Source: a virus (lineage: Duplodnaviria; Caudoviricetes). From it: DNA of 58,949 nt. Positions within the stretch are counted from its first letter, which is position 1. Every line of letters starts with the position of its first letter. Of the stretch, positions 2,757 through 57,937 are shown piece by piece. The position numbers and the translations under genes were made by a program. A model generated the notes under the pieces. It ran no database searches and was not told the origin of the DNA. It saw nothing but the letters and a program-made list of their open reading frames with translations. The stretch is taken from IMG/VR virus record IMGVR_UViG_3300005764_000001, positions 1-58,949 of that record. One strand, written 5' to 3'.

Positions 2757-2797
2757 ATTATGGGGAATCCCGTCCAGTAACCGGGATCTCCCATATT
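2757..2797. promoter_or_regulatory. 41-bp inverted-repeat site A
   Basis: ATTATGGGGAATCCCG-TCCAGTAAC-CGGGATCTCCCATATT; immediately upstream of -10 TACGAT of the tape measure gene. Confidence 0.7.
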
Positions 2798-2812
2798 CCG
2801 TACGATGCGGAT

Positions 2813-5734
2813 GTGGCCACCCTCGGCCGAGCCTTCATCGAAATCGTCGCCGACACCGCCAAATTCGGCGCGAGCATCCGCCGCGACTTGCGGCGGTCAC
2901 TGTCGTCTTTGGACAAGGAAGTCAAGGCCGCCGGCGACAAGGCCGGGCGCAGCTTCTCCAGCTCGTTCTCCTCCAGCGTCACCAAGGGCGTCAGCACCAC
3001 CGGCGCGCGGGTCTCCGACCGCGTCGCGGCCGGCATGCGCAAGAACGAGCGCAAGGTCACCGAGAGCGCGTCGCAGATCGCCAACCGGCTGGGCATCAAG
3101 TTCGAGGAAGGCGGGGAGCTGGCCGGGCTGCGCTTCGTCGACCGCGCCGCCCGCGAAGCCAAGCGGCTGGGCCTGGTCCTGCAAGTCGCCGGCAAGGACG
3201 CCCAGGGCCGGTTCATCCACGCCTTCGACCCGGCGACCGGGCTGCGCACCGTGTTCCGCGACACCGCCAAGATCGCCGCCCGGGGCGGCCGGGCGGTCGC
3301 CGACAGCTTCGGCCGCGAGCTGCGCCGCGGCATCGCCGACCTGGGCCGCATCGGCCTGGACGTCGGCAAGGGCTTCGTCAAGGCCAGCCAGCTGATCCAA
3401 AAGGGACTGTCCAAAGTCACCAACGAACTCAACCGGATCGCCCGCGGCGCGGCGTCGATCGGCACCATCGCCGCCGCCGCCCTCTCGGCGCTGCCGCACG
3501 TGCTGAGCCTGGCCGGCTCCCTGGCCGACCTGTCGGGGATCCTGGCCGCGCTGCCCGCGTTCGCGACCGCCGCCGGCATCGGCATCACCGGCCTGGTCCT
3601 GTCGCTCAAAGGCTTCTCCGACGCGCTCAAGGCGACCAGCGACAAGCAGCTGGAAAAGGCGCTGGAGGGCATGGGCGCCAAGGCCAGAGCGCTGGCGCTG
3701 CAACTGCGCGGCCTCAAGACCCAGTTCAACACCGTGCGCAAGGCCGCCCAGGAGTCGTTTGTCGGCGCGCTGGGCCCGATCACCTCGGTCACCAAGCTGC
3801 TGCCGAGCCTGCGCAAGGGCTTCGCCGGGATCGGCACCGAACTGGGCAAGATCGGCAAGCAGCTGCTCAAGTTCGCGACCAGCGGCGAAAACCTCAAGGT
3901 GCTCTCGGCCGCGTTCACCTCCACCCGCAAGTCCATGGCCGGCGCCGGAAGCGGGCTGATCCCGCTGCTGGCCGGGCTGCGCGACCTGGTCACCGTCGGG
4001 CTGCCGTTCGTCGTCAAATTCGGCGACGCGATCGGCGGGCTGGCCACCAAATTCGGCAACTTCCTGTCCGAGTCCGCCAAGAGCGGCAAGGCCACCGACT
4101 GGATCCAGACCGGCCTGGACGTGCTCACCCAGCTCGGCGACATCGCCACCAACGTCTTCGGGGTCTTCAAGTCGTTCTTCACCGCCTCGGAGGCGACCGG
4201 CGGCAACTTCCTGACCACGCTGCAAAAGGTCACCGGCGCCCTGGACGCGTTCTTCAAATCCGCGCAGGGCCAGGCCGCGCTGACCAATTTCTTCGGCACC
4301 CTGGCCACCCTCGGCGACGCGATCGGCCCGGTCATCGCCGCGATCGCCGCCCAGATCGGCAACCTCGCCCCGGTCATCTCCGACCTGATCATCACCCTGG
4401 CCCCGGCGGTCAAGGCCGTCATCGACGCCCTCGGCCCGGTCATCACCGCCCTGGAACCGGGCCTGCAAGCCCTCGGCGGCGCCGTCGCCGACACCCTGCT
4501 GGCGCTGGTCCCGGCCCTGCAACCGCTCGCCACCGCGATCTCGTCCATCGTCGTCGCGCTGGCCCCGGCGCTGCCGGCGCTCGGCGGGCTGGTCGCCGCC
4601 CTGGTCGAGCTGCTGGCCGTCAACCTCGGCCCGCTCGCGCAGATCATCGGCGTCGTCGTCAAGGCCCTGACGCCGTTCATCGACCTCATCTCCGGGCTGG
4701 TCGTACAGCTGGCCGGGCAGCTCGGCCCGGTCATCGCCCAGATCGCCAACTCGTTCGTGACCGCGTTCCTGCCGGTCATCCTCGAACTGGGCAAGGCATT
4801 CCTGCCGATCCTGCCGCAGGTCGCCGGGCTGGTCCGCTCGTTCGTCGACGGACTGGCCCCGGCGCTGCCGGCGATCGCCGCGGCGTTCCTGCGCCTGGCC
4901 GCCGCCCTGCTGCCGCTGGTCGACGAATTCGGCGGCGCCCTGATGGACACCCTGGTCGACATCATCCCGATGATGCCGGAACTGGCCGACGCCGTCGTGC
5001 AGCTGGCCCTGACGTTCGCCGACCTGGTCGACATGGTCATTCCGCTGCTGCCGGTGCTGCTGCCGATCGTCACGTCGGCGCTGCCGCTGCTCGAACTCGG
5101 CCTGCTGGCCGTCACCGCCGGGCTGCGGATCGTCAACATCATGATCCAGTCGGTGATGAACACCTTCAAGGGCATGATGACGGTGGCCACCACCCTGCGC
5201 ACGGTGGTCGTAAAGGCGTTCCTGGGCATCCAGAACTTCGTCTCCTCGGCGATCGACGTCGTGCTCAAGCGGGTGCAGGGGTTCGTCGACTTCGTCAAGG
5301 GCATCCCCGGGCGCATCGGCGACCTCGGCGCGGCGATCGGGCGGGCCATCTCCGACGGCATCGGCGCCGGCATCAATCTGGCCATCGACGCGATCAACGC
5401 CCTGATCCGGGCGTTCAACCGGCTGCCCGGCCCGGACATCCCCGAGGTGCCGCACCTGGCCCAGGGCGGCCTGTTCAACTCGGCGACCAAGGTCATGGTC
5501 GGCGAGGCGGGGCCAGAGGTCGTCATCCCGCTGACCAAGCCGCTGCGCGCGGTCCAGCTCGCCCAGGCGTCCGGGCTGACCGACATCCTGCACCGCGCCG
5601 CCGGCGACACCAGCCAGCAGCGGCCCACCCAGGTGACCATCAACGCCCCGATCACCGTCGTCACCGCCGTCACCGACCCGCGCCTGGTCGCCCAGCAGAT
5701 CACCTCCCGACTGGCCCGGATGGCGGTGGCGTAG
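2813..5734 (+). CDS. Tape measure protein
   Basis: 973 aa, amphipathic Ala/Leu-rich periodic repeats, N-terminal LGRAFIEIVADT, C-terminal AQGG...VGEAGPEVVIPL. Confidence 0.93.
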   Translation: MATLGRAFIEIVADTAKFGASIRRDLRRSLSSLDKEVKAAGDKAGRSFSSSFSSSVTKGVSTTGARVSDRVAAGMRKNERKVTESASQIANRLGIKFEEGGELAGLRFVDRAAREAKRLGLVLQVAGKDAQGRFIHAFDPATGLRTVFRDTAKIAARGGRAVADSFGRELRRGIADLGRIGLDVGKGFVKASQLIQKGLSKVTNELNRIARGAASIGTIAAAALSALPHVLSLAGSLADLSGILAALPAFATAAGIGITGLVLSLKGFSDALKATSDKQLEKALEGMGAKARALALQLRGLKTQFNTVRKAAQESFVGALGPITSVTKLLPSLRKGFAGIGTELGKIGKQLLKFATSGENLKVLSAAFTSTRKSMAGAGSGLIPLLAGLRDLVTVGLPFVVKFGDAIGGLATKFGNFLSESAKSGKATDWIQTGLDVLTQLGDIATNVFGVFKSFFTASEATGGNFLTTLQKVTGALDAFFKSAQGQAALTNFFGTLATLGDAIGPVIAAIAAQIGNLAPVISDLIITLAPAVKAVIDALGPVITALEPGLQALGGAVADTLLALVPALQPLATAISSIVVALAPALPALGGLVAALVELLAVNLGPLAQIIGVVVKALTPFIDLISGLVVQLAGQLGPVIAQIANSFVTAFLPVILELGKAFLPILPQVAGLVRSFVDGLAPALPAIAAAFLRLAAALLPLVDEFGGALMDTLVDIIPMMPELADAVVQLALTFADLVDMVIPLLPVLLPIVTSALPLLELGLLAVTAGLRIVNIMIQSVMNTFKGMMTVATTLRTVVVKAFLGIQNFVSSAIDVVLKRVQGFVDFVKGIPGRIGDLGAAIGRAISDGIGAGINLAIDAINALIRAFNRLPGPDIPEVPHLAQGGLFNSATKVMVGEAGPEVVIPLTKPLRAVQLAQASGLTDILHRAAGDTSQQRPTQVTINAPITVVTAVTDPRLVAQQITSRLARMAVA

Positions 5735-10775: not shown

Positions 10776-10819
10776 TAGCATGAACCGACAACCTCGCCGC
10801 TGGCTGCGGGCCGGGCACC
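10776..10819 (+). promoter_or_regulatory. Late-type promoter: -10 TAGCAT plus downstream GCTGGCTGCGGGCCG box
   Basis: Near-identical to 11744-11787; same spacing as at 57945 and 57892. Confidence 0.7.
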
Positions 10820-11743: not shown

Positions 11744-11787
11744 TAGCATGAAGCGGCAATCTCGCCGCTGGCTGCGGGCCGGGCACC
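11744..11787 (+). promoter_or_regulatory. Late-type promoter: -10 TAGCAT plus downstream GCTGGCTGCGGGCCG box
   Basis: Repeat of 10776-10819. Confidence 0.7.
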
Positions 11788-12997: not shown

Positions 12998-14587
12998 ATG
13001 TTCATCGAACCGTCGCTGATGAGCGACTCGCAGATCGAAAGCGAGATCCGCGCCCTGTCGGCCGCCCAGGACGCCGCCCGCTACAACTGGGACCGCCACG
13101 CCCGCGCCGCGCAGCGCGAACCGGCGCAGTACCACACGTGGCTCATCATGGCCGGGCGCGGCTACGGCAAGACCCGCACCGGCGCGGAGACGCTGCGCGG
13201 CTGGGCGCGCCAGCGCCCCGGCCAGTACGCGGTGATCGCCAAGAGCCAGCGCGAAGTCCTCGCGGTGTGCTTCGAGGCGCCCCGGGCCGGGCTGCTCGCG
13301 GTGGTGCCCGACGAGGATGTCGCCGGGTTCCGGCGGGGCGCGGGCTCGGTAGCTTTGCATCTGCGCAACGGTAGCGTCATCCGGGCGTTTTCCGCCGAGT
13401 CCCCGGACGCGCTGCGCGGCTACGCGTTCGACGGGGTGTGGTGCGACGAGTTTTCCGCCTGGCAGCACCAGACCGCGCAGGCCACATTGGACATGGCGTG
13501 GTTCTGCCTGCGCGAGGCGGTCGAACCCCGGATGGTCGTCACGTTCACCCCGCGCAACCTGGCCCACGTCAAGGCCCTGGTCAAGCGCGCCGAAACCGAT
13601 CCGAAGGTGGTGTTGACCCGTGGCCGCACCAGCGAAAACGCGGCCAACCTGTCGGCGGCGGCGCTGGCCGAGCTGGACGACCGCTACGGCGGCACCCGGC
13701 TGGGCCGCCAGGAGCTGGACGGGGAGCTGCTCGGCGACGACGAGAACGCGCTGTTCAACCTCGGCTGGATCGAATCGGCCCGGGTCGACTACGCGCCGCC
13801 GCTGCGCCGGGTGGTCGTCGCCGTCGACCCCACGTCGACCGCGCACGAGCAGTCCGACGAGTGCGGCATCGTCGTGGCCGGGACCGGCCCGGACGGGCAC
13901 GACTACGTGCTCGCCGACGCGTCCGCCCGGGTCGCCGGCGCCGCCGCCGCCGCCCTGGTGTGGCGCACGTTCCTGGCCCACGACGCCGACGAGGTCGTGC
14001 TGGAAGGCACCAGCCTGTGGATGCTCGACGCCCTGCAGGACGCCTACGACCAGATCGCCGACGGCGTCGACCTGCCTTACGGCAAGGCCCCGGTCGTCAC
14101 CGTCACCGGCAAGAACCAGGCCAAACGCGTACGTGCCGAGCCGGTCGCCGCCAAGTACGAACAGCACCGGGTGCACCACGTCGGGGTGCTGGCGCAGCTG
14201 GAGCAGCAGATGTGCGACTGGTCGCCGGACTCCAAGAAATCCCCCGACCGCCTCGACGCCCTCGTGCACGCCATCGCGCGGCTGCGAACCAAAACGTCGT
14301 ATCAGGCCACGATCGCCACGACCCGCACCATCGTGCGCCGGATCGCGCCGCCGGCCGCCGCGCTACCGGCCCGCGCCCCGTGGCGGCTCGCGCAGCTGGC
14401 CGGTGGCCGACGCGGCGATGAGCACTTCGGCCTCGCCCCGGTGCACCGCCAGATACGAGCCCAGCGACAGCACCCGCGCGAGGCGGGTGGCGCAGCCCTG
14501 GTTGAGCCGGGCGGCGGCGGCACGGGCGGACCGGCTGGTGCGGAAATGCAGCCCGGTCATCCGCCACACGCTGTCTTGCCGGTGTAG
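12998..14587 (+). CDS. terL: Terminase large subunit
   Basis: Walker A AGRGYGKT, Walker B WCDE, GTRLGRQELDGE, nuclease motifs VAVDP and SPDRLDA. Confidence 0.95.
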   Translation: MFIEPSLMSDSQIESEIRALSAAQDAARYNWDRHARAAQREPAQYHTWLIMAGRGYGKTRTGAETLRGWARQRPGQYAVIAKSQREVLAVCFEAPRAGLLAVVPDEDVAGFRRGAGSVALHLRNGSVIRAFSAESPDALRGYAFDGVWCDEFSAWQHQTAQATLDMAWFCLREAVEPRMVVTFTPRNLAHVKALVKRAETDPKVVLTRGRTSENAANLSAAALAELDDRYGGTRLGRQELDGELLGDDENALFNLGWIESARVDYAPPLRRVVVAVDPTSTAHEQSDECGIVVAGTGPDGHDYVLADASARVAGAAAAALVWRTFLAHDADEVVLEGTSLWMLDALQDAYDQIADGVDLPYGKAPVVTVTGKNQAKRVRAEPVAAKYEQHRVHHVGVLAQLEQQMCDWSPDSKKSPDRLDALVHAIARLRTKTSYQATIATTRTIVRRIAPPAAALPARAPWRLAQLAGGRRGDEHFGLAPVHRQIRAQRQHPREAGGAALVEPGGGGTGGPAGAEMQPGHPPHAVLPV

Positions 14588-14893: not shown

Positions 14894-15109
14894 TCACAGC
14901 GACCGCCGGTGCAGCTGCTCGGTCGCCAGCGCGTCCAGATAGGCGTCCAGGTCGGCCTTGCGGAACCGCCGGTGCGCGCCCGGCGGCTTGATGGACGGCA
15001 TGCCCGCCGCCACCCAGCGCCGCAGCGTCGACTCGGTCACGCCCAGGTAGGTGCACGCCTCCGCGACCGTCATCAGGCCGCTCGTCGGTGCGTATTCCGA
15101 CGCGATCAC
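14894..15109 (-). CDS. Excisionase/MerR-like HTH DNA-binding protein
   Basis: LMTVAEACTYLGVTESTLRRWV...GAHRRFRKADLD. Confidence 0.85.
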   Translation of the reverse strand: MIASEYAPTSGLMTVAEACTYLGVTESTLRRWVAAGMPSIKPPGAHRRFRKADLDAYLDALATEQLHRRSL

Positions 15110-15485
15110 TCGATCCCCCTCGTTCGTCTCGCGGCGGCCGACAAACGTGACGATCGGCGCCGCGAGGGTTGCAACGGGTGTAAAACCCCGCGAGGAAAGG
15201 GACTTTAGCGGTTTCAGCTGCTCAGACACGCGGTCAAGAGCAAAACGGCTGGTAAAGGTGGTAGATGATTGCCTATGGCGCGCTGTCGTTCACCCGAAAG
15301 GGTGACGAACGGTGCTCTGTAACGGATGTGAACGCAAACACCTTTTAGCTGGCAACCGGCCCCATACCCCGAACGGGTGACATTAGTCATGGCGGCGGTG
15401 CCGGGCGGCGGCCCACGGCGGCCCACGACCGAATTGATGGCGGTCAATTCGTGACGGTGCGACGTCATGCCTGTTGCACTCGGGC

Positions 15486-15719
15486 ATGAACCCAGCCGAC
15501 GAACCAGCCCCGGCCACGCACACCAAGGTCACCGTCAACCTGACCGCGAAGTCCTACCGGTCTCTGAGCGTTGCCGCGCAGCTCGGCGAGCACAACCGCA
15601 CCGACGCCATCAACCGGGCCGTCCAGCTGTACGCCTGGTGGCTGCAACAGGACGCGGCCGGGGCCGAGCACATCCTGCGCCTGCCCAACGGCGACTACAA
15701 GATCGTCGAACTGCTGTGA
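15486..15719 (+). CDS. Ribbon-helix-helix-like regulator
   Basis: KVTVNLT...NRTDAINRAVQLY. Confidence 0.65.
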   Translation: MNPADEPAPATHTKVTVNLTAKSYRSLSVAAQLGEHNRTDAINRAVQLYAWWLQQDAAGAEHILRLPNGDYKIVELL

Positions 15720-17476: not shown

Positions 17477-17501
17477 GGTGCCCTCCGGGATCCCCCACAA
17501 T
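17461..17501. promoter_or_regulatory. 41-bp inverted-repeat site E, covering the integrase RBS and start
   Basis: Right half CGGGATCCCCCACAAT matches site B at 15/16; GTG and CAC 32 nt apart; left half degenerate. Confidence 0.55.
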
Positions 17502-37309: not shown

Positions 37310-37317
37310 TACGTCGT

Positions 37318-37656: not shown

Positions 37657-37665
37657 GACGGGAGC

Positions 37666-42247: not shown

Positions 42248-42266
42248 GGGAAGCGGGGCGGCGGCG

Positions 42267-42482: not shown

Positions 42483-42581
42483 GGTGGCGGGCAAGAGACA
42501 GTCCCATGGCTGTGCTCTCGCGTGGGCGGGGCCGTCCGGCGGCCTAGGGGGCTACGCCGCGGCGGCCCCGCCTTTGCCGGG

Positions 42582-47932: not shown

Positions 47933-48382
47933 TCAGTCCTCTCCGGCGGGTGAGCGCATCTGCCGGGCCCGGTCCAGGGCCCGCTGGTGGTATTCGGGCA
48001 GCGGGTTCTGCGCCGGTTCGCGCTGGGCGGCCCAGCGGGCGGCGGCGCGGGCGATCAGGGCCCGCACCCGCTCGCGCGGGTCGGGGTGGTTGTGGGCGCG
48101 GCGGTGGTGCACTTCGGCGCGGGCGGCGATTTCGGCGCGGCGGGCCTCGCGGTCGCGGGCCTCGGCACGGGCGCGGGCGATGACGCGCACCCCGGCGACG
48201 ATGTGCGCCGGGGTCACCCGGGCCGGGTCGGAGCGCACATGCGCACGCAGCGCCCGGTCGGCGTCGCCGTAGGCCACGTCGGACAGGAACACCTGCCAGG
48301 CAAGGACCGTGGCGTCGGTGACGACCCGCCCGTCGATCGCGGAAATGGCGCCGAGCAGCCGCGCGGTCTCCTCCCGGTTCAT
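47933..48382 (-). CDS. Putative helicase loader/inhibitor-like protein
   Basis: E.ARLL..I.A.D.R......AW...L.......A..A...H...PAHI; coupled to the initiator gene. Confidence 0.7.
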   Translation of the reverse strand: MNREETARLLGAISAIDGRVVTDATVLAWQVFLSDVAYGDADRALRAHVRSDPARVTPAHIVAGVRVIARARAEARDREARRAEIAARAEVHHRRAHNHPDPRERVRALIARAAARWAAQREPAQNPLPEYHQRALDRARQMRSPAGED

Positions 48383-49374
48383 CGGACACCTCCGATGCCG
48401 CGGTCGGCGTCGTCGGCGGCGCGCATGCGGTCGACGAGTTCCAAAAGGTCTTCCTGGCGGCGCTGTGCGGGGTTGCGCCGCGGCGGCAGCGGCTCGTCGG
48501 ACCAGCACTCGCCGTTGAGCCACGTGCCGGGCAGCTTGGTGAAGGCCGGCTCGCGGTTGGGGTCGTCGCGGTAGCGGACCGCCGCGGCGCACAGCGTGTC
48601 CAGCGGCGCCTTGGTGACGGCTTTGGCGAACGCGCGGCGGGCTTCGGCCTTGGACGCCTTGCGCGGATACAGCGCGTACCACTGCTCGAACCCGGCTACA
48701 TCGGGCGGGCGGCGGCGCGCCGGGGCCGCTGGTCCGCCATCGGCGGACGAGAGTTCTTCCGGGGTTGCTCTTACTCTTCCTCTTACTCTTAGGGCGTTAC
48801 TAACGCGTGTGTCACGCGTGACATCGCGGACGGCCAGGTCGGTGCCGGTGCTGGCGACATCGCACCCATCATCGGCGAAGACCCGGCCGGCATCGCACCC
48901 ATCATCGGCGGTGCCGCTGTGCGCATCGCACCCATCATCGGACCGACCGAACGATGATGGGTGCGATGCCGACGGTGGCGGGCTGTCACGCGTGACAGGC
49001 GCGTTAGTCACGCGGGTGTCACGCGTTGCGGCCCGGTGGCGGCGCTGGCGGGCGGTGTTGGCCTCGCGCAGCTCGTCGCGCCGCGCGGTGGACAGCTGGT
49101 TGTCCAGGTAGTCGTGGACCAGCCAGCCGCCGTCGGCGTTCTCCCACAGCCGGGTCCGCACCAGCTCGTCGGCCAGGTCGCGGTAGGACACCGTGACCCC
49201 GCCGGCGGGCACCAGGTCGGTCAGCAGCTCCAGCTCCCCGGCGGCGACGAAACCGTCGGTGCAGTACTCGAACGCCCAGCCGATGCTCGCGATGTAGAGG
49301 CGGAACGCGGAATCGGAAAGCTTGCGCATCTTGCGGTGCAGGCAGATGTCGGGGGCGATTTTCACGAAGAGCAC
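48379..49374 (-). CDS. Replication initiator protein
   Basis: H.K...LS..A..L...TDG...LW....GW.VHDYL N-domain; FEQWY..YPRK..K..A and TWLN..CW.DE C-domain; internal iterons. Confidence 0.85.
   Translation of the reverse strand: MLFVKIAPDICLHRKMRKLSDSAFRLYIASIGWAFEYCTDGFVAAGELELLTDLVPAGGVTVSYRDLADELVRTRLWENADGGWLVHDYLDNQLSTARRDELREANTARQRRHRAATRDTRVTNAPVTRDSPPPSASHPSSFGRSDDGCDAHSGTADDGCDAGRVFADDGCDVASTGTDLAVRDVTRDTRVSNALRVRGRVRATPEELSSADGGPAAPARRRPPDVAGFEQWYALYPRKASKAEARRAFAKAVTKAPLDTLCAAAVRYRDDPNREPAFTKLPGTWLNGECWSDEPLPPRRNPAQRRQEDLLELVDRMRAADDADRGIGGVR
48810..48997. repeat. Iteron cluster (putative origin)
   Basis: CATCGCACCCATCATCGG at 48858, 48891 and 48924, inverted copy at 48952-48968, flanked by TGTCACGCGTGACA palindromes. 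Confidence 0.85.
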
Positions 49375-49412
49375 GTCGGGCCTCCCGGGGGTTAGGAGCA
49401 GGGCAGACAGGG

Positions 49413-49953
49413 TCAGCCGCCCAGGCACGTGCAGCGGGCGCCGACGATCGGGATCACGTCGGCGCCGGCCTCGTCCAGCCGCCCGGCGGGCATGATGTCG
49501 ACCAGCTCGGCGTCGTCGTAGCCGAGCACCGGCCGCCCGTACATGCGCATGACCTTGTTCGCCGCCGAGATCAGCGCGGCGGTCGCCAGCTCGTGGGGCC
49601 CGGCCGGGAACAGCGTCATGTTCCCGGCCGTCTCCGTGATCTCCACATTGGAATTGCCGTCGTCGACGGTGATGGTGACGGTGATCATTCTTAGTCGTCC
49701 TGCTTCCAGGCGGTGGTGTGCTGGTTGCAAAGGCGCAGCGTCCCGGCGGCGCTGGCGCGGCGAAACCGCGCCCTTCGCGGCAGCGGGCCGACGCCCTTGT
49801 GCTCGTGCAGCCACAGCACGCATTCGTCGCACTGCGGCGGGTCCTTGACGGTGATCCGGGTGTAGGTGGCTGTTCCGCGGTGGTGCTGGGTGCCGGTCGG
49901 GCGGCCCAGCGGCGGCGGGTGTACCGGGTCAAACATCGCCAGCTGTCCCCTCA
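49413..49953 (-). CDS. Two small hypothetical genes (about 49691-49953, 49413-49688)
   Basis: Packed ORFs; CDEC...LC..H motif in the first. Confidence 0.5.
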
Positions 49954-50128
49954 TCGGCGATCTCCTCGAACTGTGCGCAGGCGCAGCGGCCGTCGGCGGC
50001 CGTCCACGTGATGCAGCTGCCTCGGTGGCGCATCGCGGCGCGTCCGACCATGTCGTGAACCGCCTCGAAATGCCCGCACCGGCACCGGCGCGCACCTGGC
50101 CGGAGGTCGTGCGGTGCCGGTGCGGTGC

Positions 50129-50290
50129 TCACTTGGGCACGGATGCCGTGCGGACGATGCCGCGCCCGCCGAAGGCGGAATTGTTGTAGGCCATGGCTTC
50201 GGCGAGCGTGGCGAAGTCCATGGTGGAGCTGTCGGTCGGTGAGGAAAGCCGGAAGACCGTCTTCTTGTTTTGCCCGCATCCGCATCCGAT
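50129..50290 (-). CDS. Small (M)GCGCG protein with apparent ATC start
   Basis: GGAGG RBS then ATC GGA TGC GGA TGC GGG; 53-aa open frame directly after the protease. Confidence 0.6.
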   Translation of the reverse strand: MGCGCGQNKKTVFRLSSPTDSSTMDFATLAEAMAYNNSAFGGRGIVRTASVPK

Positions 50291-50328
50291 GGCTACTGCC
50301 CTCCCCGGGTGTGTGGTGGGTGGTGGCG

Positions 50329-52206
50329 CTAGACGCCGCCGTGCACGAGTGCGTCCAGCTCGGCGACCTGGCTGGCCCGGTCGCGGCCGATCGACGCGGC
50401 GATGACGTCGACGGCGGCGGCCCGCAGGGCGGCCAGCTCTCCGGGAATGGTAGATCCCGGTGAGTCACCGGGATCCCCCATAATGGAGTTTCCGGCAGCG
50501 GGTCCCCCGAACGTGGTGGGGTAGGCGGCGGTGAACGCGGCCACGATCGCCACCTCCCGCCCGCCGGCCACATGGGCCTGCACGACGTAGCCGGGGTGCG
50601 CGACCGGGGTCAGCGCGATCAGCTCCAGCCCGGAGCCGGGCCGCGCCTCGCGCCAGTCCCCCGACGGCGGATAGGCCAGGAACCCGTAGATCTGCTCGTC
50701 GGTCGCGGTCGGGGTCAGCACGCCGTGGAACCACCCGCCGTGCTCGTCCTCGCCGACGTCGACCAGCGCGACCGCCGAGCCGACCTGGTCGTAGTGGGCG
50801 GTCGCCTGCTCTTTGCTGGCGGCCAGGTCGGCGTGCCCGCCGCCGTAGGAGTACACCCCGACGCGGCGGCTGGCCCCATCGGCGGTGACCACCGTCGACG
50901 TGCGGAATTCGCAGTAGTCGCACTTCGAGCGCGGCGGGGTCAGGCACAGCCCGGCGGCGACGAAGCTGCGGTGGCACGACTCCCAGTCGGCGAAGTGGCC
51001 GAACACCTCGCCGGAGGCGAGCACAGTCGGCGGGGTCGGGCCGGAAAGGTGCGGGTCGCCGAAGAACGACGCCGAGGGCTGCAACGGGCGGTCGAACTGG
51101 CTGTAGGGCACCGCAGCGGCGGTGCGGGCCCGCTGCGCCTTGCCCTGCAACGTCTCCAGCTTCGACGCGATGGCCTTGCGGTCGGCGTCCGACAGGCCCT
51201 TGACGCCGCCGCGCGCCCCGGCGAGGGCGCCCGCGACAGCGGTCAGCGCCGCCGGGACGGCGGTCAGCGTGCCGTTGATGACGTCGGCGAACGGCAGCTT
51301 GTAGGCCGCCAGGGTGGCCGGGTCGGCGGAGTCGTCGCGGTACAGGAACGCCTGGGCGAGCTTGCCCGGGTCCACGGCGCCGGAGCTGTCGGTGGCCCAG
51401 GCGAGGACCCGCGACGCCGCGCCGGGCCCGTCCCAGGCCCGCGAAGCCGGGGCCAGCGGCAGCGACATGTTGCCGACGGCGGCGGCGGTCATCCCGGCCG
51501 GGGCCGTGTCGGCGCCCTCGGCGGGCGGCGCGGCGTCGTCGGGGGCCTGCACGGAGCGCAGCCGGCCGTCCAGCTCCATGACGGCGCTCTTGAGGGCCTC
51601 GACGTCGGCGTTGGACAGCCCGGCCAGGCCGCCGCCGTCCAGGTCGTCCAGGGCCTGCGCGACCGCTTCGGGGACGATCTGAAGCTCGCCGTTGACGACG
51701 TCGGCGATCGGGTAGTCGTACGAGGCGATGTCGGCCGGGTCGGCGGAGTCGTCGCGGTACAGGAACGCCGCGCCGATCTTCGCCGGGTCGCCGCCGGCCC
51801 AGGCGGCGATGTGCTCGCGGGCCGCCCCGGCGTCGAACGGGCGGTCGGCGGGCTCGGCGATCGGCAGCGCGGTGTCGGCCGGGACCGACGCGGTCAGCGC
51901 GGGCAGGATCAGCCCGGCGACCCGGGCCGCGGTGATCTGCGCCGGGCCGGCCTCGGTGACGACGATCGACGTGGTGGCGTAGTTCAGCGCCAGCCCGTCG
52001 GTCGGGTCGTCGGTGAACATCTGCCCGGCCGCCCGCAACACGCCATCCACATAGGACAGGGAGAGGGCGCGGCCGACGACCCGCCCGTCGCGGGTGTGCA
52101 CCGGCATCGGGGTCATCAGCGCGGTGACGGACGCCGCGGCGGTCAGCACGTTGCCGAGCCGGTCGGCGACCCCGGCGCGGGCGATGTCGGCGGTGAACTC
52201 ACGCAT
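50329..52206 (-). CDS. Capsid maturation protease-like protein
   Basis: Follows portal; G.VFGH.A.W..CH, HYD, VGED..G.W..G, SGDWR, LEL.A...V..PG motifs; duplicated AFLYRDDSADP domain. Confidence 0.8.
   Translation of the reverse strand: MREFTADIARAGVADRLGNVLTAAASVTALMTPMPVHTRDGRVVGRALSLSYVDGVLRAAGQMFTDDPTDGLALNYATTSIVVTEAGPAQITAARVAGLILPALTASVPADTALPIAEPADRPFDAGAAREHIAAWAGGDPAKIGAAFLYRDDSADPADIASYDYPIADVVNGELQIVPEAVAQALDDLDGGGLAGLSNADVEALKSAVMELDGRLRSVQAPDDAAPPAEGADTAPAGMTAAAVGNMSLPLAPASRAWDGPGAASRVLAWATDSSGAVDPGKLAQAFLYRDDSADPATLAAYKLPFADVINGTLTAVPAALTAVAGALAGARGGVKGLSDADRKAIASKLETLQGKAQRARTAAAVPYSQFDRPLQPSASFFGDPHLSGPTPPTVLASGEVFGHFADWESCHRSFVAAGLCLTPPRSKCDYCEFRTSTVVTADGASRRVGVYSYGGGHADLAASKEQATAHYDQVGSAVALVDVGEDEHGGWFHGVLTPTATDEQIYGFLAYPPSGDWREARPGSGLELIALTPVAHPGYVVQAHVAGGREVAIVAAFTAAYPTTFGGPAAGNSIMGDPGDSPGSTIPGELAALRAAAVDVIAASIGRDRASQVAELDALVHGGV
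50444..50484. promoter_or_regulatory. 41-bp inverted-repeat site B inside the protease 3' end
   Basis: GGAATGGTAGATCCCG-GTGAGTCAC-CGGGATCCCCCATAAT. Confidence 0.7.
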
Positions 52207-54040
52207 GGGTCGGCACCTTTCCGGATGCGAACTCGGGCCGGTCCAGCACCGCCGCCAGCGCCGCCCGGGAATGGACGGCACCCGCGCACAGCAGGCCGGC
52301 GGCGTAGGTGTGCAGAACCTCGTGCAAAAGGTCGGCGTCCACGGCCAGCCCGTCGGCGACCTGGCCGACGGACTCGAACGTGCCGTCGAGCAGCCGGGCC
52401 GCCGACGTCGGCGTGCAGGCGTACCCGGCGGCGGTGTGGTACGCGTACGGCGGCAGCGGGTCCAGCTTGTAGCGGGCCCGCCCGACCAGCCGCTTGCCGG
52501 CCGTTTCCAGGGCCTGCAACGTCAGCGCCTCGGCGGCGGCCAGAAGGCTTCCGGCGGCCGGCAGCGCCGGGGCGGCGCGGGTGTCGGTCGGCGGCAGCGC
52601 CCGGTCGCGGGCCGGGGCCGAGCGGTCGATGCCGCGGGCCTGGCTGGACTGGCCCTGCGCGGGGGCGATCGACACCCCGCCGGGGCTGTCGGGGGCCAGG
52701 TCGAACGCTGCCAGGAGCTGGTTGATGATGGCCGGGGCGGCGGTCGGGACCTTGCCGGCGACCTCCAGCAGCGCGTTCTGGATCTTCTCGGCCGGGGTCG
52801 GGGCGTCGTCTTCGGTGAACCCGTTCGCACGGCGCAGCGCCGTACCGGACAGCTCGTTGCGGTCGAAGACCGCCTGGGCGTCGCTGGCGCGGTCGGGGCG
52901 CTGGATCAGCGCCGAAATGTCGTACCAGACGACGAACTTGCGGAAGTCTTCGACCGCCTGGGTCTGCAACGCGGGCCAGAGGTACTGCTCGGTGAACGCG
53001 GCGCAGACCAGCTCCAGCAGCGGAATGATCTGGGTGGTGACCAGGGACTCCTGCATCTGCCAGGACGACAGGTGGTTGGACGCCCCGACGCCGGTCAGCT
53101 GTTCGGGGCTGATGTCCAGGCCCATCGCCAGGCGTTTGATGGCCCGGTCGCGCAGGTCCAGGATCGTCTCGGAGACCGGCGTGGACAGGGCCAAAAGGCG
53201 CGGCTTGTCGAGCATCTCGGCGGGCGCGCGTACGACGATCGGCACGATCGCGGCGACGCTGTCGCGGTCGGCGATCGCGGTCATCATCGCCTCGGTCAGC
53301 GCGGTCATGAACTTGTCCGCGCCGGAGTCGTCGCCGGGCCCGTCGGCGTCCTCGCCGGACGCGATGGAGAACGACATCTCTTTGGGCAGCAGCAGGATGC
53401 CGGCGGTGGCCAGCCGCGAGTCGATCTGGGCGGTGACGGTCTGGTCGCAGCGCACGATCTCGCGCATCGGCACCCGTACGGCGCGGCTGGGGCTGGTCGC
53501 CTCCGAGCGCCGGCGCGGGTGCGGGTCCCACACCTTGATGACCAGCGACGTCTGCGGGTCCAGGGTGAACGCGTCGCCGTTGCCGTGGTCGACGGTCACG
53601 GTGCCGTTCATGACGGTGACCTCGTCGACGCTGGCCACGTCCCAGATCTCGCCGCCGTCGACGAGCTGGGCGTAGATGTAGCACTCGCCGGGGATCAGCA
53701 GCTGGAGGACGGCGTCGTGGATCAGCGGGGTCTGCATGACCGGGCCGCCCAGGAATGTCGCGGAGCGGGCCACGGTGGCGTTGTCGAGCACCGGGCGGCC
53801 GGAGTCGTCGATCTCGGTCACGAACAGAAACGCGCGTGAGGCTTGCGCGGCCAGCCAGTCGGTGACGAACCGGTACTCCGGCACGCAGTCGTAGAACTCC
53901 CAACTTTCGGCCTGCCAGGTGGTCGAGCCGCTGGTGCGCAGCCGCTGCCAGGTCGCGGCGGACACGGTCGCGGCGGCGGCGTGCAGGGTGGCCGTCGGCC
54001 CGGCGCCGGGCGGCTTGGTCTTGGTCCACATGCGCGCCAC
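52199..54040 (-). CDS. Portal protein
   Basis: AGGAG RBS; WQ.E.W..YD.VPE.RF, VW.PHP, SRLA.AGIL.LP.E, R..AI.RLA.GLD..PE.L.G motifs. Confidence 0.85.
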   Translation of the reverse strand: MARMWTKTKPPGAGPTATLHAAAATVSAATWQRLRTSGSTTWQAESWEFYDCVPEYRFVTDWLAAQASRAFLFVTEIDDSGRPVLDNATVARSATFLGGPVMQTPLIHDAVLQLLIPGECYIYAQLVDGGEIWDVASVDEVTVMNGTVTVDHGNGDAFTLDPQTSLVIKVWDPHPRRRSEATSPSRAVRVPMREIVRCDQTVTAQIDSRLATAGILLLPKEMSFSIASGEDADGPGDDSGADKFMTALTEAMMTAIADRDSVAAIVPIVVRAPAEMLDKPRLLALSTPVSETILDLRDRAIKRLAMGLDISPEQLTGVGASNHLSSWQMQESLVTTQIIPLLELVCAAFTEQYLWPALQTQAVEDFRKFVVWYDISALIQRPDRASDAQAVFDRNELSGTALRRANGFTEDDAPTPAEKIQNALLEVAGKVPTAAPAIINQLLAAFDLAPDSPGGVSIAPAQGQSSQARGIDRSAPARDRALPPTDTRAAPALPAAGSLLAAAEALTLQALETAGKRLVGRARYKLDPLPPYAYHTAAGYACTPTSAARLLDGTFESVGQVADGLAVDADLLHEVLHTYAAGLLCAGAVHSRAALAAVLDRPEFASGKVPTHA

Positions 54041-54048
54041 GGCGGCTC

Positions 54049-54372
54049 CTACCCTTGCGGTTCGTCCGAAGCGGGCTCCAGGCCGGTGGTGGCGGCCACA
54101 CCGGTCACATAGGACGCCGCCAGGGCCAGCGCGGCGGCGTCGAACCACAGCCGGCCGTGCCAGGCGTACCAGGCGCCGGCTGCGCCGGCGCCGATCCACA
54201 ACGACAGGCACCAGGCGCACACGGCCAGGTAGCGGGGCAGCGACTCGTCGTGCGATGTGTTGCGCCACACCAGTTGCCGCAGGGGTCGGGTGATCCGGTC
54301 GGCGCGCAGCAGGATAGTCAGCCGGGCGACCGCGAGGGCGACAAGCAGAATTTCGAGCCAGACCGGCATCAC
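54049..54372 (-). CDS. DUF1360-like membrane protein
   Basis: LAVARLT.L...D.IT.PLR...C.WC.S.W; leaderless -10 TATGCT. Confidence 0.75.
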   Translation of the reverse strand: MMPVWLEILLVALAVARLTILLRADRITRPLRQLVWRNTSHDESLPRYLAVCAWCLSLWIGAGAAGAWYAWHGRLWFDAAALALAASYVTGVAATTGLEPASDEPQG

Positions 54373-54411
54373 AATGGGAGCATACGGTGACTCACCGGGA
54401 TTGGGCATAAA
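54371..54411. promoter_or_regulatory. 41-bp inverted-repeat site C overlapping the portal-operon promoter
   Basis: ACAATGGGAGCATACG-GTGACTCAC-CGGGATTGGGCATAAA. Confidence 0.7.
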
Positions 54412-54412
54412 C

Positions 54413-54445
54413 GTGTGGCCCGGTAGCGGGCGCACCGGGCCACAC
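54413..54445 (-). terminator. 12-bp perfect hairpin ending the capsid operon
   Basis: GTGTGGCCCGGT-9 nt-ACCGGGCCACAC. Confidence 0.75.
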
Positions 54446-54459
54446 CTGTCGCCGCCGGG

Positions 54460-55161
54460 TCAGGACACGACTACCGGCCCGGAAAGCGGCGAGCATTCGG
54501 CGGTGTCCATCCGGCAGGCGCGCGGGGTGAACGAGCCAGCGACCGTAAAGGTATGCACCGCCGTGTCGGCGCCGGGCCCGTAGGTCAGCGCGGTGACCGC
54601 CGTCCCGTCGCCCCAGTCGATCTCGAACGGCACGCCGGCCAGCACCGCCGCCCCGGCCGGGGCGATGCGCACGGTCACCGCCAGCGGCGCCGCCCCGGCG
54701 ACCGGGGTTGTCGCGGCGAGGGTGAACGTCGGCACCGTCACGGTGACCGCCCCGGCGCACGCCGATCCGGAGAACGTGGTGCCGTGCGCGGAAACGGCGT
54801 AGCTGCCCGACAGGCCGTAGGTGTGCGACACCGGCGCGTTGAGCAGCACACCGTCCACACTGGAACCGTCGCCCCAGTCGATGGTGTAGCCCGACGTCAG
54901 GCCGGTGGTCACCGTCGCGGTCGCCGACGCCGCGTTCGGGGTGTTGGTCACCGTCAGCGCGCACGGCGGAACCGGGCAGGTGACCGTCTGGGAGGCGGTG
55001 CCGCCGGCGACCGTGTCGGTGATGGTGATCGTGTGCGCGCCGGGGTCGGCGTAGGTGTGGGTGGCCGTGCCGGTCGCCGAGCCGGACCCGGCCGCGCTGC
55101 CGTCGCCCCAGTCGATGCTGACCGGGTTCGCGGCGCTCCATGTGATCGATGCGGTGGGCAC
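54460..55161 (-). CDS. Triple PKD-domain virion (decoration-like) protein
   Basis: IDWGDG motif three times, each with HTY/HTF. Confidence 0.8.
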   Translation of the reverse strand: MPTASITWSAANPVSIDWGDGSAAGSGSATGTATHTYADPGAHTITITDTVAGGTASQTVTCPVPPCALTVTNTPNAASATATVTTGLTSGYTIDWGDGSSVDGVLLNAPVSHTYGLSGSYAVSAHGTTFSGSACAGAVTVTVPTFTLAATTPVAGAAPLAVTVRIAPAGAAVLAGVPFEIDWGDGTAVTALTYGPGADTAVHTFTVAGSFTPRACRMDTAECSPLSGPVVVS

Positions 55162-55170
55162 GGGCCTCTC

Positions 55171-56043
55171 CTAGGTGCAGTCGGCGGCGGTCAGCGCCGG
55201 GCCCTCGGCCGGCAGGGTGTGGCCGCAGGTGCAGCAGTCGGTGAGGGTGACCCGGGCGGCGTACACGCCGGGGCAGTCGAGAAGGGTGGCGACCGACTGC
55301 TCGTAGACGTGGAACGATTCGTTGCCGGTGACGTCGTTCGCCCCGGCCTCGCTGACCGGTCCGATGTAGACGTCGACGGCACCGGTGGCGTAGAGCCAGA
55401 ACACGCATTCGGTCGACGTCTGCCCGTTCGGGCCGTCGGCGGAGTAGCCGGCCCCGAACGCCCACGCGTTGCCCAGCACGGTGACCGGCGCGGTCATGTC
55501 GCCGCAGCCGCAGACGAGGCGGTCGCGGGCCGCGAACGCCGCCGCGTAGCGGGGGGCGTGGATGACCGCCTGCCCGTCGTAGACGTCGCCCAGCGCCTGC
55601 TCCAGCGCCGCCACCGCGCCGGCGATCCCGGTCGCGCCGCTGCCGTAGGGCGGCGACACGTCGACGGCGGCGGCCTGCATGTGGGCGAACAGCTGCGACT
55701 CGATGCACCGCCACCGGCCGCCGGCGAGCTTGGCGCGGGCCCGCTCGGCGGCGGTGGCGGGGTCCAGGACATCCGTGCACGCCGCCGCGTACACGGTGAA
55801 CGGGTCCCCGGTCAGGATCTGCGGACAGCACGAGGACGGGTGCTTGCCGCCGGGCGGCGCCACGCCGCCCGAACACGGCGCGGGCCAGGTGCAGCTGGCC
55901 GTCGCGCACGCGTCGGTCTCGGCGGTCAGCCCGGCCAGGCCCAGGCGCCGCGAGGCGCCCTCGTGCACGGCGGCGGCCTGCGCCAGCCCGCCGCGCAGCG
56001 TCCGGCGTACCGGCGCGGTGACCTCGATACGCGGCTGTGCCAC
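55171..56043 (-). CDS. Major capsid pentamer-like protein
   Basis: AGGAGG RBS; PF.VY, A.LE......Y.G...IH.PR, GAGY and W.YATG.V motifs; follows MCP. Confidence 0.7.
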   Translation of the reverse strand: MAQPRIEVTAPVRRTLRGGLAQAAAVHEGASRRLGLAGLTAETDACATASCTWPAPCSGGVAPPGGKHPSSCCPQILTGDPFTVYAAACTDVLDPATAAERARAKLAGGRWRCIESQLFAHMQAAAVDVSPPYGSGATGIAGAVAALEQALGDVYDGQAVIHAPRYAAAFAARDRLVCGCGDMTAPVTVLGNAWAFGAGYSADGPNGQTSTECVFWLYATGAVDVYIGPVSEAGANDVTGNESFHVYEQSVATLLDCPGVYAARVTLTDCCTCGHTLPAEGPALTAADCT

Positions 56044-56077
56044 GTCAACCTCCTACCGGCTCGCCGCTACCCGCTAC

Positions 56078-57820
56078 CTACGGTGCGCAGGCGAACTGAA
56101 CCGGGGCCGAGGTGGCGCCGGAGGGGCAGATGTCGAGCGTGTAGATGTAGGTCGGGAAGCAGCGGTGCAGCAGGATCTGGCACTGCTCGGTGAACATCGA
56201 CGTGTACTCGTTCTGCTCCAGGCTGGTCGAGTCGTATACGGCGTCCAGGCTGATGATGTTGCGCGAGCCCAGCGACCAGGTCCCCGGCGCGTAGATGACG
56301 AACTTGAGGCTGTCGGGCCACACCGTCGCCGGGGTCGTCCCGCCCAGCCCGCCGGCCGTGCCGGCGAACGCGTCCTGCCAGCCGCGCAGCCACTGCACGC
56401 GCACGTTCAGGTCGCCGAACCGGCTGGTCAGCTGCGCCTGGGTGACCCCCGACGGGGTGCAGCAGCCGGTGCGGCGCATCTGGTCGATCGACGCCATCTC
56501 CGGCAGCCACGCGGGCAGCAGCACTTCCAGCTCCTGGGTGGCGCTGGCCTGGGCGCGGGCCCGGTAGTCGGCCGCCGCCAGCGCGACCGCGGAGTACACC
56601 CCGGACGTGACGGTGGTGTCCAGGTCCAGGTCCGAGCCGGGGGCCAGGTTGACCGGCGTGGCCGCGGCGGCGATCTTCGCGATGATGTCGCGGTTGAGGA
56701 CCAGCTGGTGCAGCGCCAGGGCGTCGGTCATCACCCGCTGGACCAGCTCGGGCCACGCGGTGTCGTTGATCAGGTCGCCGCGTACGCAGATGCCGTTGCA
56801 CTCCTGGGTGAAGTCGGTGAACGTCGGGCACGGCATGGTGAAGCAGTTCTTCGGCGTGCCGGCGATCGAGTCCGCCTCGGTCCAGGTGAAGCCGATGTTG
56901 TCGGCGACCGGGATCAAGTTGAACGCGTCCGGGTACTGCACGGCGTTGCGCCGGTAGGTGAACCGGGGCCCGTCCCACAGCCCGCCGGTGCCGTTGATCA
57001 GGCTGCCGCACAGGTCCCAGAACTGCTCCGGCGGCGGGCACCAGGCGCCCGCCGCGACCAGCGACCCGCCGACCCGGTTGAGGCTGGTGGCGGCGTCGAT
57101 GACCTCGGCGTCGTTGCGCCCGTCGGCGATCGGCAGGTTCTGCGGGTCGGGCAGGGTGATGCGGGCGACGCCCTGCTTGAGGTGCAGCTGGGCGAACCCG
57201 GACGTGCCGCGCAGGCGCTGCTGGCGCGGGAAGCCGTTCCACCGCTTGGCCAGGACGTCGGCCAGCTCCGGCAGCCCGCGCAGGGTCTGGCCGTTGGCGT
57301 AGTCGGGCACGTCGGCGGCGGCGGTCACCACGGCCGGGCGTCCGCCGACCGACAGGATCGTGTCGCGGTTGGCGGTCGGCGCGGGCACCGGCGGGCGGGG
57401 CGCGGCGGCGGCGGCCCGGGTGAGCGCGGCCCCGGCGGCCATCACCGGACGGCGCGCGGCCTCGGTGGGTGCGGCGGCGGCCGGTTCGGCGACGGGGTCG
57501 GCCGGGGCCGGCTCGTCGGTGGCGGGCTCGTCGGCGCCCTCCTCGGCGCCGGGCTCGCCGTCGGGGGCGGCCTGGGCGTGCACCTCGGCGTCCATCGCGG
57601 CCAGCTCCGCGGCGTCGGCGGCCGACTGGGCGTCGATGGCGGCGGTCCGCTCGCGGGCGGTGCGGATGAACGTGGCCAGGGCGCGCAGCTGCGTCAGGCC
57701 CTCGGCGTTGAGGTTTTCGTCGTCGCGCAGGGCGTCGAACGCCTCGACCGCGCTGGCTTCGGCGGCGACCAGCTGCTCGCGGGTGTAGCCGTCGATCGAC
57801 TCGGGGATCACAAAGGACAC
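56078..57820 (-). CDS. Major capsid (hexamer) protein with N-terminal scaffold
   Basis: AGGAG RBS then GTG at 57820; coiled-coil and Ala/Pro N-region, LVAAGAWC.P.E...DL, YDST.L..N.Y...FTEQ. Confidence 0.88.
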   Translation of the reverse strand: MSFVIPESIDGYTREQLVAAEASAVEAFDALRDDENLNAEGLTQLRALATFIRTARERTAAIDAQSAADAAELAAMDAEVHAQAAPDGEPGAEEGADEPATDEPAPADPVAEPAAAAPTEAARRPVMAAGAALTRAAAAAPRPPVPAPTANRDTILSVGGRPAVVTAAADVPDYANGQTLRGLPELADVLAKRWNGFPRQQRLRGTSGFAQLHLKQGVARITLPDPQNLPIADGRNDAEVIDAATSLNRVGGSLVAAGAWCPPPEQFWDLCGSLINGTGGLWDGPRFTYRRNAVQYPDAFNLIPVADNIGFTWTEADSIAGTPKNCFTMPCPTFTDFTQECNGICVRGDLINDTAWPELVQRVMTDALALHQLVLNRDIIAKIAAAATPVNLAPGSDLDLDTTVTSGVYSAVALAAADYRARAQASATQELEVLLPAWLPEMASIDQMRRTGCCTPSGVTQAQLTSRFGDLNVRVQWLRGWQDAFAGTAGGLGGTTPATVWPDSLKFVIYAPGTWSLGSRNIISLDAVYDSTSLEQNEYTSMFTEQCQILLHRCFPTYIYTLDICPSGATSAPVQFACAP

Positions 57821-57853
57821 CGTGGGCTCCTGTGCGGGAGATCGGGCCCCGAT

Positions 57854-57892
57854 CGGCCCGCAGCCAGCATCGGTGTATCGCCGACCAGCGTA
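57854..57892 (-). promoter_or_regulatory. Capsid promoter: -10 TACGCT plus downstream GCTGGCTGCGGGCCG box
   Basis: Box starts 18 nt after the -10 on the minus strand. Confidence 0.7.
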
Positions 57893-57896
57893 GACC

Positions 57897-57937
57897 ACAA
57901 TGGGAGGACGCAGTGAGTCACCGCGTCTACCCATAGT
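57897..57937. promoter_or_regulatory. 41-bp inverted-repeat site D between the divergent capsid and tail promoters
   Basis: ACAATGGGAGGACGCA-GTGAGTCAC-CGCGTCTACCCATAGT. Confidence 0.72.

Follow-up and report, generated by a model that had tools for sequence, protein, structure and literature searches.

The window analysed here is the complete 58,949-base record IMGVR_UViG_3300005764_000001 (IMG/VR; Duplodnaviria, Caudoviricetes), the genome of an uncultured soil phage, and the subject of this analysis is a family of dispersed 41-bp elements with inverted-repeat character, several of which stand at operon starts. The record represents a whole virus with direct terminal repeats, its first and last 60 bases being identical, and has a GC content of 70%; the sequencing runs (n = 4, from two studies) were of soil DNA. 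When 19 kb of the window were searched for near-identity among 50,697 annotated phage records, no DNA-level match was returned, and identity of the capsid protein to those of Gordonia and other actinobacteriophages does not exceed 33%. Judged by the portal protein, three IMG/VR phages with genomes of 46-63 kb, designated G1 and G2 (L003/L004) and G3 (L005), stand nearest (51-55% identity), and prophages of Micromonospora and Actinoplanes share 40-43% portal identity. These related loci were recovered by alignment-based portal searches, while a query with the single portal protein recovered none. Since the portal relatives include Micromonospora and Actinoplanes prophages, the host is probably an actinomycete of this family.

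The gene labels of an earlier, preliminary description of this DNA proved mostly correct, and the genes relevant to what follows are these:

58036 across the ends to 14587, plus strand: block that includes the major tail protein gene
2813-5734, plus strand: tape-measure protein (TMP) gene, with tail genes in the same block
12998-14587, plus strand: large terminase gene
15908-17398, minus strand: large serine integrase gene (int), with Resolvase, Recombinase and Zn_ribbon_recom domains
17940-18839, minus strand: gene for a serine-recombinase-like protein of 299 residues with Recombinase and zinc-ribbon domains and no catalytic domain
23175-23867, minus strand: ERF recombinase gene, start at 23867
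50329-52206, minus strand: gene for a protease-like protein, followed on the same strand by replication genes and many small genes
52199-54040, minus strand: portal gene
54049-54372, minus strand: p107, first gene of the portal operon
56078-57820, minus strand: major capsid protein gene, with two genes of unknown function also on the minus strand

Six 41-mers had been claimed in this genome, and all of them are present:

Site 1, 2757-2797: good dyad with arms matching at 13 of 16 positions, 3 nucleotides (nt) ahead of the -10 box of TMP
Site 2, 17461-17501: only the right arm (17485-17501) fits the family; 63 nt upstream of the likely int start at 17398
Site 3, 23896-23936: directional member with arms matching at 6 of 16 positions; the ERF start (minus strand) follows 29 nt downstream
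Site 4, 50444-50484: best consensus match, with a perfect 23-bp palindrome, in the 3' part of the protease-like gene (minus strand)
Site 5, 54371-54411: extends over the entire core promoter ahead of the p107-portal-protease operon; centre of the site at about -19
Site 6, 57897-57937: good dyad, arms 12/16, between the divergent capsid and tail promoters

The fixed geometry that had been described also holds, ATG and CAT (GTG and CAC at 17461) starting 32 nt apart in all six sites. The pattern ATG-N29-CAT has 17 matches in the genome against 6.03 expected, and five of the sites are among them. A repeat search independently recovered two groups, one of direct repeats made up of sites 3-6 (D14) and one inverted pair made up of sites 1 and 4 (I18). 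Membership was assessed by leave-one-out scoring with a symmetrised matrix and by comparison with 100 shuffled genomes. In this test, sites 1, 3, 4, 5 and 6 scored 37.8, 19.1, 42.5, 40.5 and 29.4 bits, respectively, the best position outside the family reached 1.5-13.3 bits, and the scores of the five sites were attained in none of the 100 shuffled genomes; sites 1, 4, 5 and 6 are, in addition, mutual best matches genome-wide. The claim of a family of six thus stands for these five sites and fails for site 2, which as a whole scores -1.3 bits, a value equalled in 92 of 100 shuffles. Its right half reaches 12.6 bits and ranks 12th of 117,858 positions, yet 60 of 100 shuffles reach this score. 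The right arm of site 2 is identical at 16 of 17 positions to that of site 4, and this 17-mer, with up to two mismatches, occurs four times against 0.00 expected, so that site 2 may at best be a half-site. The core GGTGASTCACC taken alone, with three matches against 1.45 expected and at least three in 13 of 100 shuffles, is not significant. No further full site or convincing lone half-site was found elsewhere in this genome. Five of the six sites lie outside called genes, site 4 being the only one inside, which with a coding fraction of 0.82 from a crude gene caller corresponds to a binomial P of about 0.001. Clustering by exact k-mers and short-word alignment was noisy for dispersed motifs; it recovered the motif family of G2 described below and the present one only partly. 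Collectively, these data establish a real, non-random family of cis-elements, with five members and not six.

The inverted-repeat character attributed to all sites is restricted to sites 1, 4 and 6, whose arms match at 13, 11 and 12 of 16 positions, while sites 2, 3 and 5 reach only 7, 6 and 5. Each half-site has two blocks, TCACCGGGAT on the inner and CCCATAAT on the outer side, separated by approximately one helical turn, and the dyad is centred on a single base, the G or C at position 21 (the S of GTGA-S-TCAC). Despite their poor arm pairing, sites 3 and 5 retain the ATGGGAG, GGTGAsTCACCGGGA and CATAA blocks, whose letters and order along one strand are unchanged, and in both it is the promoter-proximal arm that is degenerate. 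As RNA, sites 1, 4 and 6 fold with -18 to -24.5 kcal/mol (z of -4.7 to -5.9 against shuffles), whereas sites 2, 3 and 5 fold no better than shuffles (z of 0.0 to -1.5 for sites 3 and 5). Since sites 3 and 5 keep their blocks without pairing or folding, it is the sequence, rather than pairing, that is under conservation. In a test for intrinsic terminators, no T-run followed any site and none was classed as terminator-like, and the whole window gave no match to Rfam families at the gathering score.

An origin of the sites as mobile elements, such as insertions resembling miniature inverted-repeat transposable elements, was rejected as their flanks carry no target-site duplications. Site 4 lies in frame within the protease-like gene. 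The linker that contains it has another length and another sequence in each of the relatives, and the tail of the protein beyond it (IAASIGRDR...VHG) is conserved. Its interpretation as an insertion was likewise rejected, because the linker's approximately 16 extra residues relative to L003 and L005 fall in a segment that is variable in all relatives. Sites 3-6 also contain, on the plus strand, seven-codon frames running from GTG to TAA or TAG (23912-23935, 50460-50483, 54387-54410 and 57913-57936), three of the four with a GGGAG(G) stretch 5-6 nt ahead of the GTG. As the fixed geometry generates these frames, which are antisense to the local genes, they are probably a meaningless by-product.

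Three of the sites (1, 5 and 6) adjoin or overlap the conserved -10 boxes of four promoters. Putative transcription starts were placed 6-7 nt after the -10 box, at the start codon itself in TMP and p107, whose messages would thus be leaderless, and the positions of the dyad centres rest on this placement:

2801-2815, plus strand: TMP promoter, TACGAT, 6 nt and the GTG start at 2813; centre of site 1 at about -36
54384-54379, minus strand: -10 box of the p107 promoter, TATGCT, followed by 6 nt and the GTG at 54372; lies within the left arm of site 5
57887-57892, minus strand: -10 box of the capsid promoter, TACGCT, 4 nt from site 6, whose centre is at about -37
57945-57950, plus strand: -10 box of the tail promoter, TAGTCT, 7 nt from site 6, whose centre is at about -40; TAATCT in G2 and G3

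The TMP promoter, which appears to be leaderless, is matched by TACGAT-N7-GTG in G2 and G3, where the first codons are homologous; a hairpin at 2714-2754 immediately precedes site 1. At p107, TATGCT-N6/7-GTG recurs in G2, G3 and many Micromonosporaceae prophages (rows not tallied), and the left arm of site 5 departs from the consensus because the -10 box sits in it. The capsid -10 box aligns with TACGCT, TATGCT, TAAGCT or TAGGCT in six relatives, and the box together with a long stretch of the 5' leader can be aligned across seven phages, whereas the sequence upstream of the box cannot; in the present phage, this unalignable place is occupied by site 6. A search for sigma-70-type promoters (-35 and -10 boxes 16-18 nt apart) gave no match in 50200-58100 and 2300-2900, and beside or within sites 1, 5 and 6 good -10 boxes are accompanied by only non-canonical -35 candidates.

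The dyads themselves are not shared by the relatives. The motif was absent from a 41-mer matrix scan of 132 related loci (2,038,313 bases), in which two scores exceeded 12 bits (16.2 and 12.5), neither resembling the sites. An exact search for core and arm in IMG/VR yielded just two chance matches in unrelated contexts, and a palindrome scan of G2 and G3 detected mostly terminator-like hairpins and no equivalent dyad family. Other motifs stand in the same places. An asymmetric motif of 17 nt, A(A/T)AGGTGCGGGGAAAGT, occurs eight times in G2, at 3139, 20469, 25183, 27997, 35068, 35761, 44813 and 47784 (L137-L140); copies are located in the capsid/tail intergenic region, ahead of p107, the tape-measure gene and both terminase genes, and behind the protease block. 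Four of these copies are at or near the places of sites 1, 5, 6 and, roughly, 4, and the motif occurs in either orientation, 4-16 nt from a -10 box. G3 has three copies of a similar motif, GGGGGGAGAAAGT, and a Micromonospora prophage (G6, L156-L158) has several copies of TGTACGGCCGCA(A/G)TG, which fills the -35 region and spacer of its p107 promoter. The G2 motif thus resembles the present dyads in occupying the same places and adjoining the same conserved -10 boxes, and differs from them in sequence and in being a single asymmetric unit instead of an inverted pair; a weak likeness between the dyad arm ATTATGGGGGAT and ATAGGTGCGGGGAA is a lead only. The lineage therefore appears to inherit its -10 boxes and starts, with a phage-specific motif overlapping the upstream half of the promoter, and this is the pattern that a phage-specific DNA-binding regulator would produce.

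On this basis, we tentatively favour, at somewhat less than even confidence, the view that the five strong sites, and perhaps the half-site at int, are operators of one phage-encoded sequence-specific DNA-binding protein that would more probably repress than activate. That a protein binds, which protein this is, where transcription starts and whether control is negative or positive are all inferred from the DNA sequence. The regulator would bind the dyads lying on the core promoters of structural genes: at the TMP, capsid and tail promoters the dyad would fill approximately -57 to -16, with its centre at about -36, -37 and -40, and at the p107/portal promoter it would span approximately -40 to +1. 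The bound protein would exclude RNA polymerase, giving repression either for timing or in lysogeny, and its removal would permit transcription of the structural genes, of ERF and perhaps of int. Occlusion is favoured because the predicted footprint lies on the promoter, the distance to the -10 box varies both here and in G2, the G2 motif is found in both orientations, and at sites 3 and 5 degeneracy affects the arm nearer the promoter; such variable spacing and orientation fit occlusion better than activation. The retention of a perfect palindrome within the variable linker at site 4 also counts for operators. Regarding the earlier proposal that one factor controls several operon starts, the placement of the sites at the TMP, portal and capsid/tail promoters and upstream of ERF and int fits, but the expression "master regulon" is too strong, since two further late-type promoters (10776 and 11744) and four early promoters carry no site.

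Several observations weigh against this view. No recognisable -10 box was found near sites 2, 3 and 4, and the start codon that comes next after site 4 is 151 nt away. No close relative has the same motif, and the sites are therefore not footprinted by evolution. The inner arms of site 6 read GACGC/GCGTC where sites 1 and 4 have ATCCCG/CGGGAT, both sides having changed together, which looks like selection for pairing and not for one half-site sequence. The likely immunity genes at 38-40 kb have no adjoining site. Finally, the early promoters have TTGACT-N17-TAGGCT whereas the site-bearing late promoters have no canonical -35 box, a contrast expected of activator-dependent late promoters.

Accordingly, the next explanation to be weighed is that a late activator binds the dyad and replaces the missing -35 box at TMP, capsid and tail, and possibly represses the portal promoter, whose -10 box is covered by site 5. 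Besides the good -10 boxes lacking a canonical -35 partner, it would account for the location of four of the six sites at structural operons, for dyad centres of -36 to -40 overlapping the -35 region, and for the phage-specific motifs of the relatives in the same area. Actinobacterial promoters, however, often lack a conserved -35 box, and the late-type promoters at 10776 and 11744 manage without a site. The centres vary (-19, -36, -37 and -40) and the site ends just 3-7 nt from the -10 box, whereas known activators of the -41.5 type sit less tightly to it; the analogous motif of G2, in both orientations and at 4-16 nt from the -10 box, fits an activator poorly as well. Activation is the main rival to repression and, in our assessment, rather unlikely.

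If the sites are operators, the question arises of which protein reads them, and the proposal already made was the recombinase-like protein of 299 residues encoded at 17940-18839. It retains Recombinase and Zn_ribbon_recom domains with four cysteines, it aligns with the integrase only from residue 138 onward, and no remnant of a catalytic domain was found upstream of its gene. That it is a decayed copy or local pseudogene of the int gene of this phage was rejected, as it belongs to a conserved stand-alone family. The short form is present in three of five related virus records (G2, G3 and G4; in G3 a tyrosine-type integrase lies beside the recombinase-like gene) and in all five Micromonosporaceae genomes with a related prophage, as open frames of 325-365 residues. 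Among the best 150 library representatives, 32 have 261-330 residues, and 28 of these 32 start with a methionine at a conserved (R)PYGY motif. The family (P0035-P0182), with a Recombinase domain, zinc ribbon and coiled coil and no catalytic domain, is widespread; a literature search turned up no paper on recombinase-like regulators without catalytic domain and no described function. While phmmer found no match for the 299-residue protein among PDB sequences, a profile of 22 short proteins matched the C-terminal construct of the A118 integrase (4kis) from profile position 2 to 287 and chain position 24 to 311, with an E-value of 2e-16.

Because this match is nearly end to end and the construct was solved on an attP half-site, the protein is a plausible reader of a 20-nt half-site, which it might contact as an integrase contacts att; such a role would be compatible with either sign of control. 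Its being a real lineage-conserved family with its DNA-binding domains intact, the location of its gene approximately 440 nt from site 2, and the presence in each phage of a dispersed motif of half-site size (15-20 nt) point in the same direction. Several facts argue against it. G005, rated 100% complete, lacks the protein and yet has the same layout of the p107 promoter; the single-base dyad axis is unlike that of att sites; the known dimer interface is lost along with the catalytic domain; and the protein is one of at least eight DNA-binding candidates. The relatives that possess it have single motifs of 15-17 nt and no 41-bp dyads, which neither proves nor refutes the idea. On balance, we consider it improbable that this protein is the binder. 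The same low expectation attaches to the broader proposal that each dyad combines, in inverted orientation, two copies of a half-site of some 17-20 nt specific to the lineage, that the recombinase-like protein reads this half-site and has been kept as a regulator of structural promoters, and that the 15-17-nt motifs of the relatives are its one-subunit sites. The other DNA-binding candidates comprise GntR, XRE, two HTH_17 and ribbon-helix-helix (RHH)-like proteins, a protein with several helix-turn-helix (HTH) matches and Int itself; Pfam scans of 20 further proteins revealed no sigma factor and no additional regulator. Further candidates are encoded at 15474-15719, 14894-15109, 36332-36562 and 24030-24410, and three of the alternatives are described here:

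40316-40528, plus strand: small GntR-type winged-helix protein, alternative binder
38650-39822, plus strand: XRE-type HTH protein with a long C-terminal part, alternative regulator
24866-25348, minus strand: protein of 160 residues with several weak HTH matches, alternative binder

The XRE and GntR proteins and one HTH_17 protein are encoded within a stretch of lower GC content (61-68%) with plus-strand genes at 35000-42500. In the same stretch, an RHH protein is followed by a protein of 139 residues, and the two may form a toxin-antitoxin-like pair.

No additional factor would be needed if the dyad were itself a compact two-way promoter, its core halves (TCACCG-like) serving as back-to-back -35 boxes to the -10 boxes that flank the site immediately outside. 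Suitable arrangements are TAACCG-N17-TACGAT at site 1 and TCACTG-N18-TACGCT leftward at site 6, and TATCCG- or TAACCG-like hexamers precede TATGCT by 17 nt in related prophages. The spacing is nevertheless 21 nt rightward at site 6, the arrangement differs at site 5, and a suitably spaced -10 box is lacking at sites 2-4. Genes lie on both sides only at site 6, so that the symmetry would be pointless at sites 1, 3, 4 and 5, and the strongly conserved outer block CCCATAAT would occupy the spacer, which is normally free to vary. This explanation is improbable.

Still less credit can be given to an action of the sites through a folded nucleic acid, either an RNA hairpin for termination or processing or a DNA cruciform. 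The strong folding of sites 1, 4 and 6, the pairing retained at site 6 with different inner-arm letters, and the position of site 1 after a terminator-like hairpin and of site 4 at a gene 3' end would agree with it. As half the sites do not fold, sites 2, 3 and 5 keeping sequence blocks all the same, a structural role is very unlikely; the lack of T-runs and terminator-like features and the location of sites 1, 5 and 6 upstream of the inferred transcript starts also oppose it.

The weakest explanation, which we hold to be highly improbable, is that the sites are att-like or invertase-like recombination sites for the serine integrase. An att site is an imperfect inverted repeat of approximately 40-50 bp, and the length of 41 bp and imperfect symmetry agree with this (arms 11-13/16 in sites 1, 4 and 6, only 5-7/16 in sites 2, 3 and 5). 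Serine-recombinase sites are symmetric about a 2-bp crossover, and no such central symmetry was found here, the geometry being odd. The att likeness originally put forward is thus one of size only: the axis passes through a single base and no attP was identified. Matches to the integrase occur in eight of 301 family genomes, the best 42-48% identical and too distant for attP mapping, and the flanks of the best integrase relatives contain nothing like site 2. Of three phages compared, only this one has both a serine integrase and dyads. Relative to G2 and G3, the block formed by capsid to p233 and tail to W1033 is inverted with respect to its neighbours, p107-portal-protease coming after the capsid block and the tape-measure block after the tail block in the present phage. 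One of the two inversion breakpoints (54372-54460) coincides with a dyad, site 5, but the other (~1545-1566) has none. The odd symmetry without a central dinucleotide, the six copies, and the fact that site 2, next to int, is the weakest member make a recombination role unlikely.

Other repeated elements were encountered in the window. A 14-nt element, GCTGGCTG(C/T)GGGCC, has five copies against 0.29 expected, always in the sense of the next gene:

57855-57868, minus strand: 14-nt element
57968-57981, plus strand: 14-nt element
58001-58014, plus strand: 14-nt element with one mismatch, second copy in the tail-gene leader
10799-10812, plus strand: 14-nt element
11767-11780, plus strand: 14-nt element

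Four copies follow a -10-like box (TACGCT, TAGTCT, TAGCAT and TAGCAT) by 17-18 nt. In most related loci the element precedes the capsid gene almost unchanged, although the proteins are just 35-50% identical, and it is followed by a hairpin with compensatory changes. The element, which matches no Rfam family, may serve late messages as a signal close to the promoter, in RNA or DNA form.

A second repeat family corresponds to the four early promoters, two of which are 100% identical:

28492-28532, minus strand: early promoter
30646-30686, minus strand: early promoter
33224-33264, minus strand: early promoter
34804-34844, minus strand: early promoter

They follow the pattern TTGACT-N17-TAGGCT (or TACCAT / TAGTCT) and have a palindromic spacer, AGCGCTAGCGCT, which may be another operator. 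Two further features are these:

48864-48962: four copies of ACCCATCATC, three direct and 33 nt apart and one inverted, within the replication-initiator gene 48379-49428; probably origin iterons
50129-50293, minus strand: small gene after the protease gene, homologous to a 55-residue gene of G2 (...GCGCGQNKKTVFRL...GGRGIVRTASVPK)

The small gene has no ATG, GTG or TTG at the homologous start, where ATC follows a GGAGGG stretch, and a strong hairpin lies at about 50060-50125 after it.

Late-gene control in actinomycete phages is poorly understood, and this genome offers a small testable set: the five strong putative operators, the four promoters conserved in relatives (two seemingly without leader) and a few candidate binders. 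If the binder were an ordinary HTH repressor, the sites would add one more operator family; if it were the recombinase-like protein, they would provide the first function for a widespread uncharacterised family and an example of a recombinase turned regulator.

Among known systems, the attachment sites of serine integrases share with the present sites a length of 40-50 bp, imperfect symmetry and two recognition blocks per half-site, and a protein with the domain make-up of the att-binding A118 C-terminal domain (4kis) is encoded near them. They differ in that att sites occur once per phage and have a 2-bp crossover, whereas the present sites occur in six copies at promoters with a single-base axis. 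The box of BldD, the host developmental repressor, was considered and rejected: compared with its consensus, 5'-TNAC(N)5GTNA-3' (PMC4151990), the order of the half-sites is reversed in the present sites and just 1 nt separates them (GTGA-S-TCAC). Site 5 shows some likeness to MerR-type control: its TATGCT -10 box is separated by 19 nt from a TATGCC hexamer, and the core of the dyad falls between the two. MerR-type promoters carry their dyad within an over-long 19-bp spacer, while the dyad of site 5 is approximately 3 nt off-centre and the other sites are placed otherwise; the scanned proteins include no full MerR-family regulator, only short HTH_17 proteins.

Parallels are also found in phage operator systems in which one motif is repeated at many promoters or intergenic regions, as is the case here with five robust copies. 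The stoperators of mycobacteriophage L5 and cluster A are asymmetric sequences of 13-14 bp, tied to the direction of transcription and present in two dozen or more copies. They resemble the present sites as repressor sites scattered over the early and late operons of a temperate phage of actinobacteria, although in the traits just named the single motifs of G2 and G3 come closer to them than the present dyads do. The conserved inverted repeats (CIRs) of the Streptomyces phage phiC31, of approximately 17 bp, are bound by the c repressor and similarly provide a palindromic operator at many promoters of a temperate actinomycete phage. The present sites depart from the CIRs in their 41 bp, in having two blocks per half-site and in numbering five to six, the CIRs being more numerous and their repressor known. 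The sites described here are best read as the probable operator set of a phage-specific regulator at structural, ERF and possibly int promoters, a kind of control element that is ordinary among phages.

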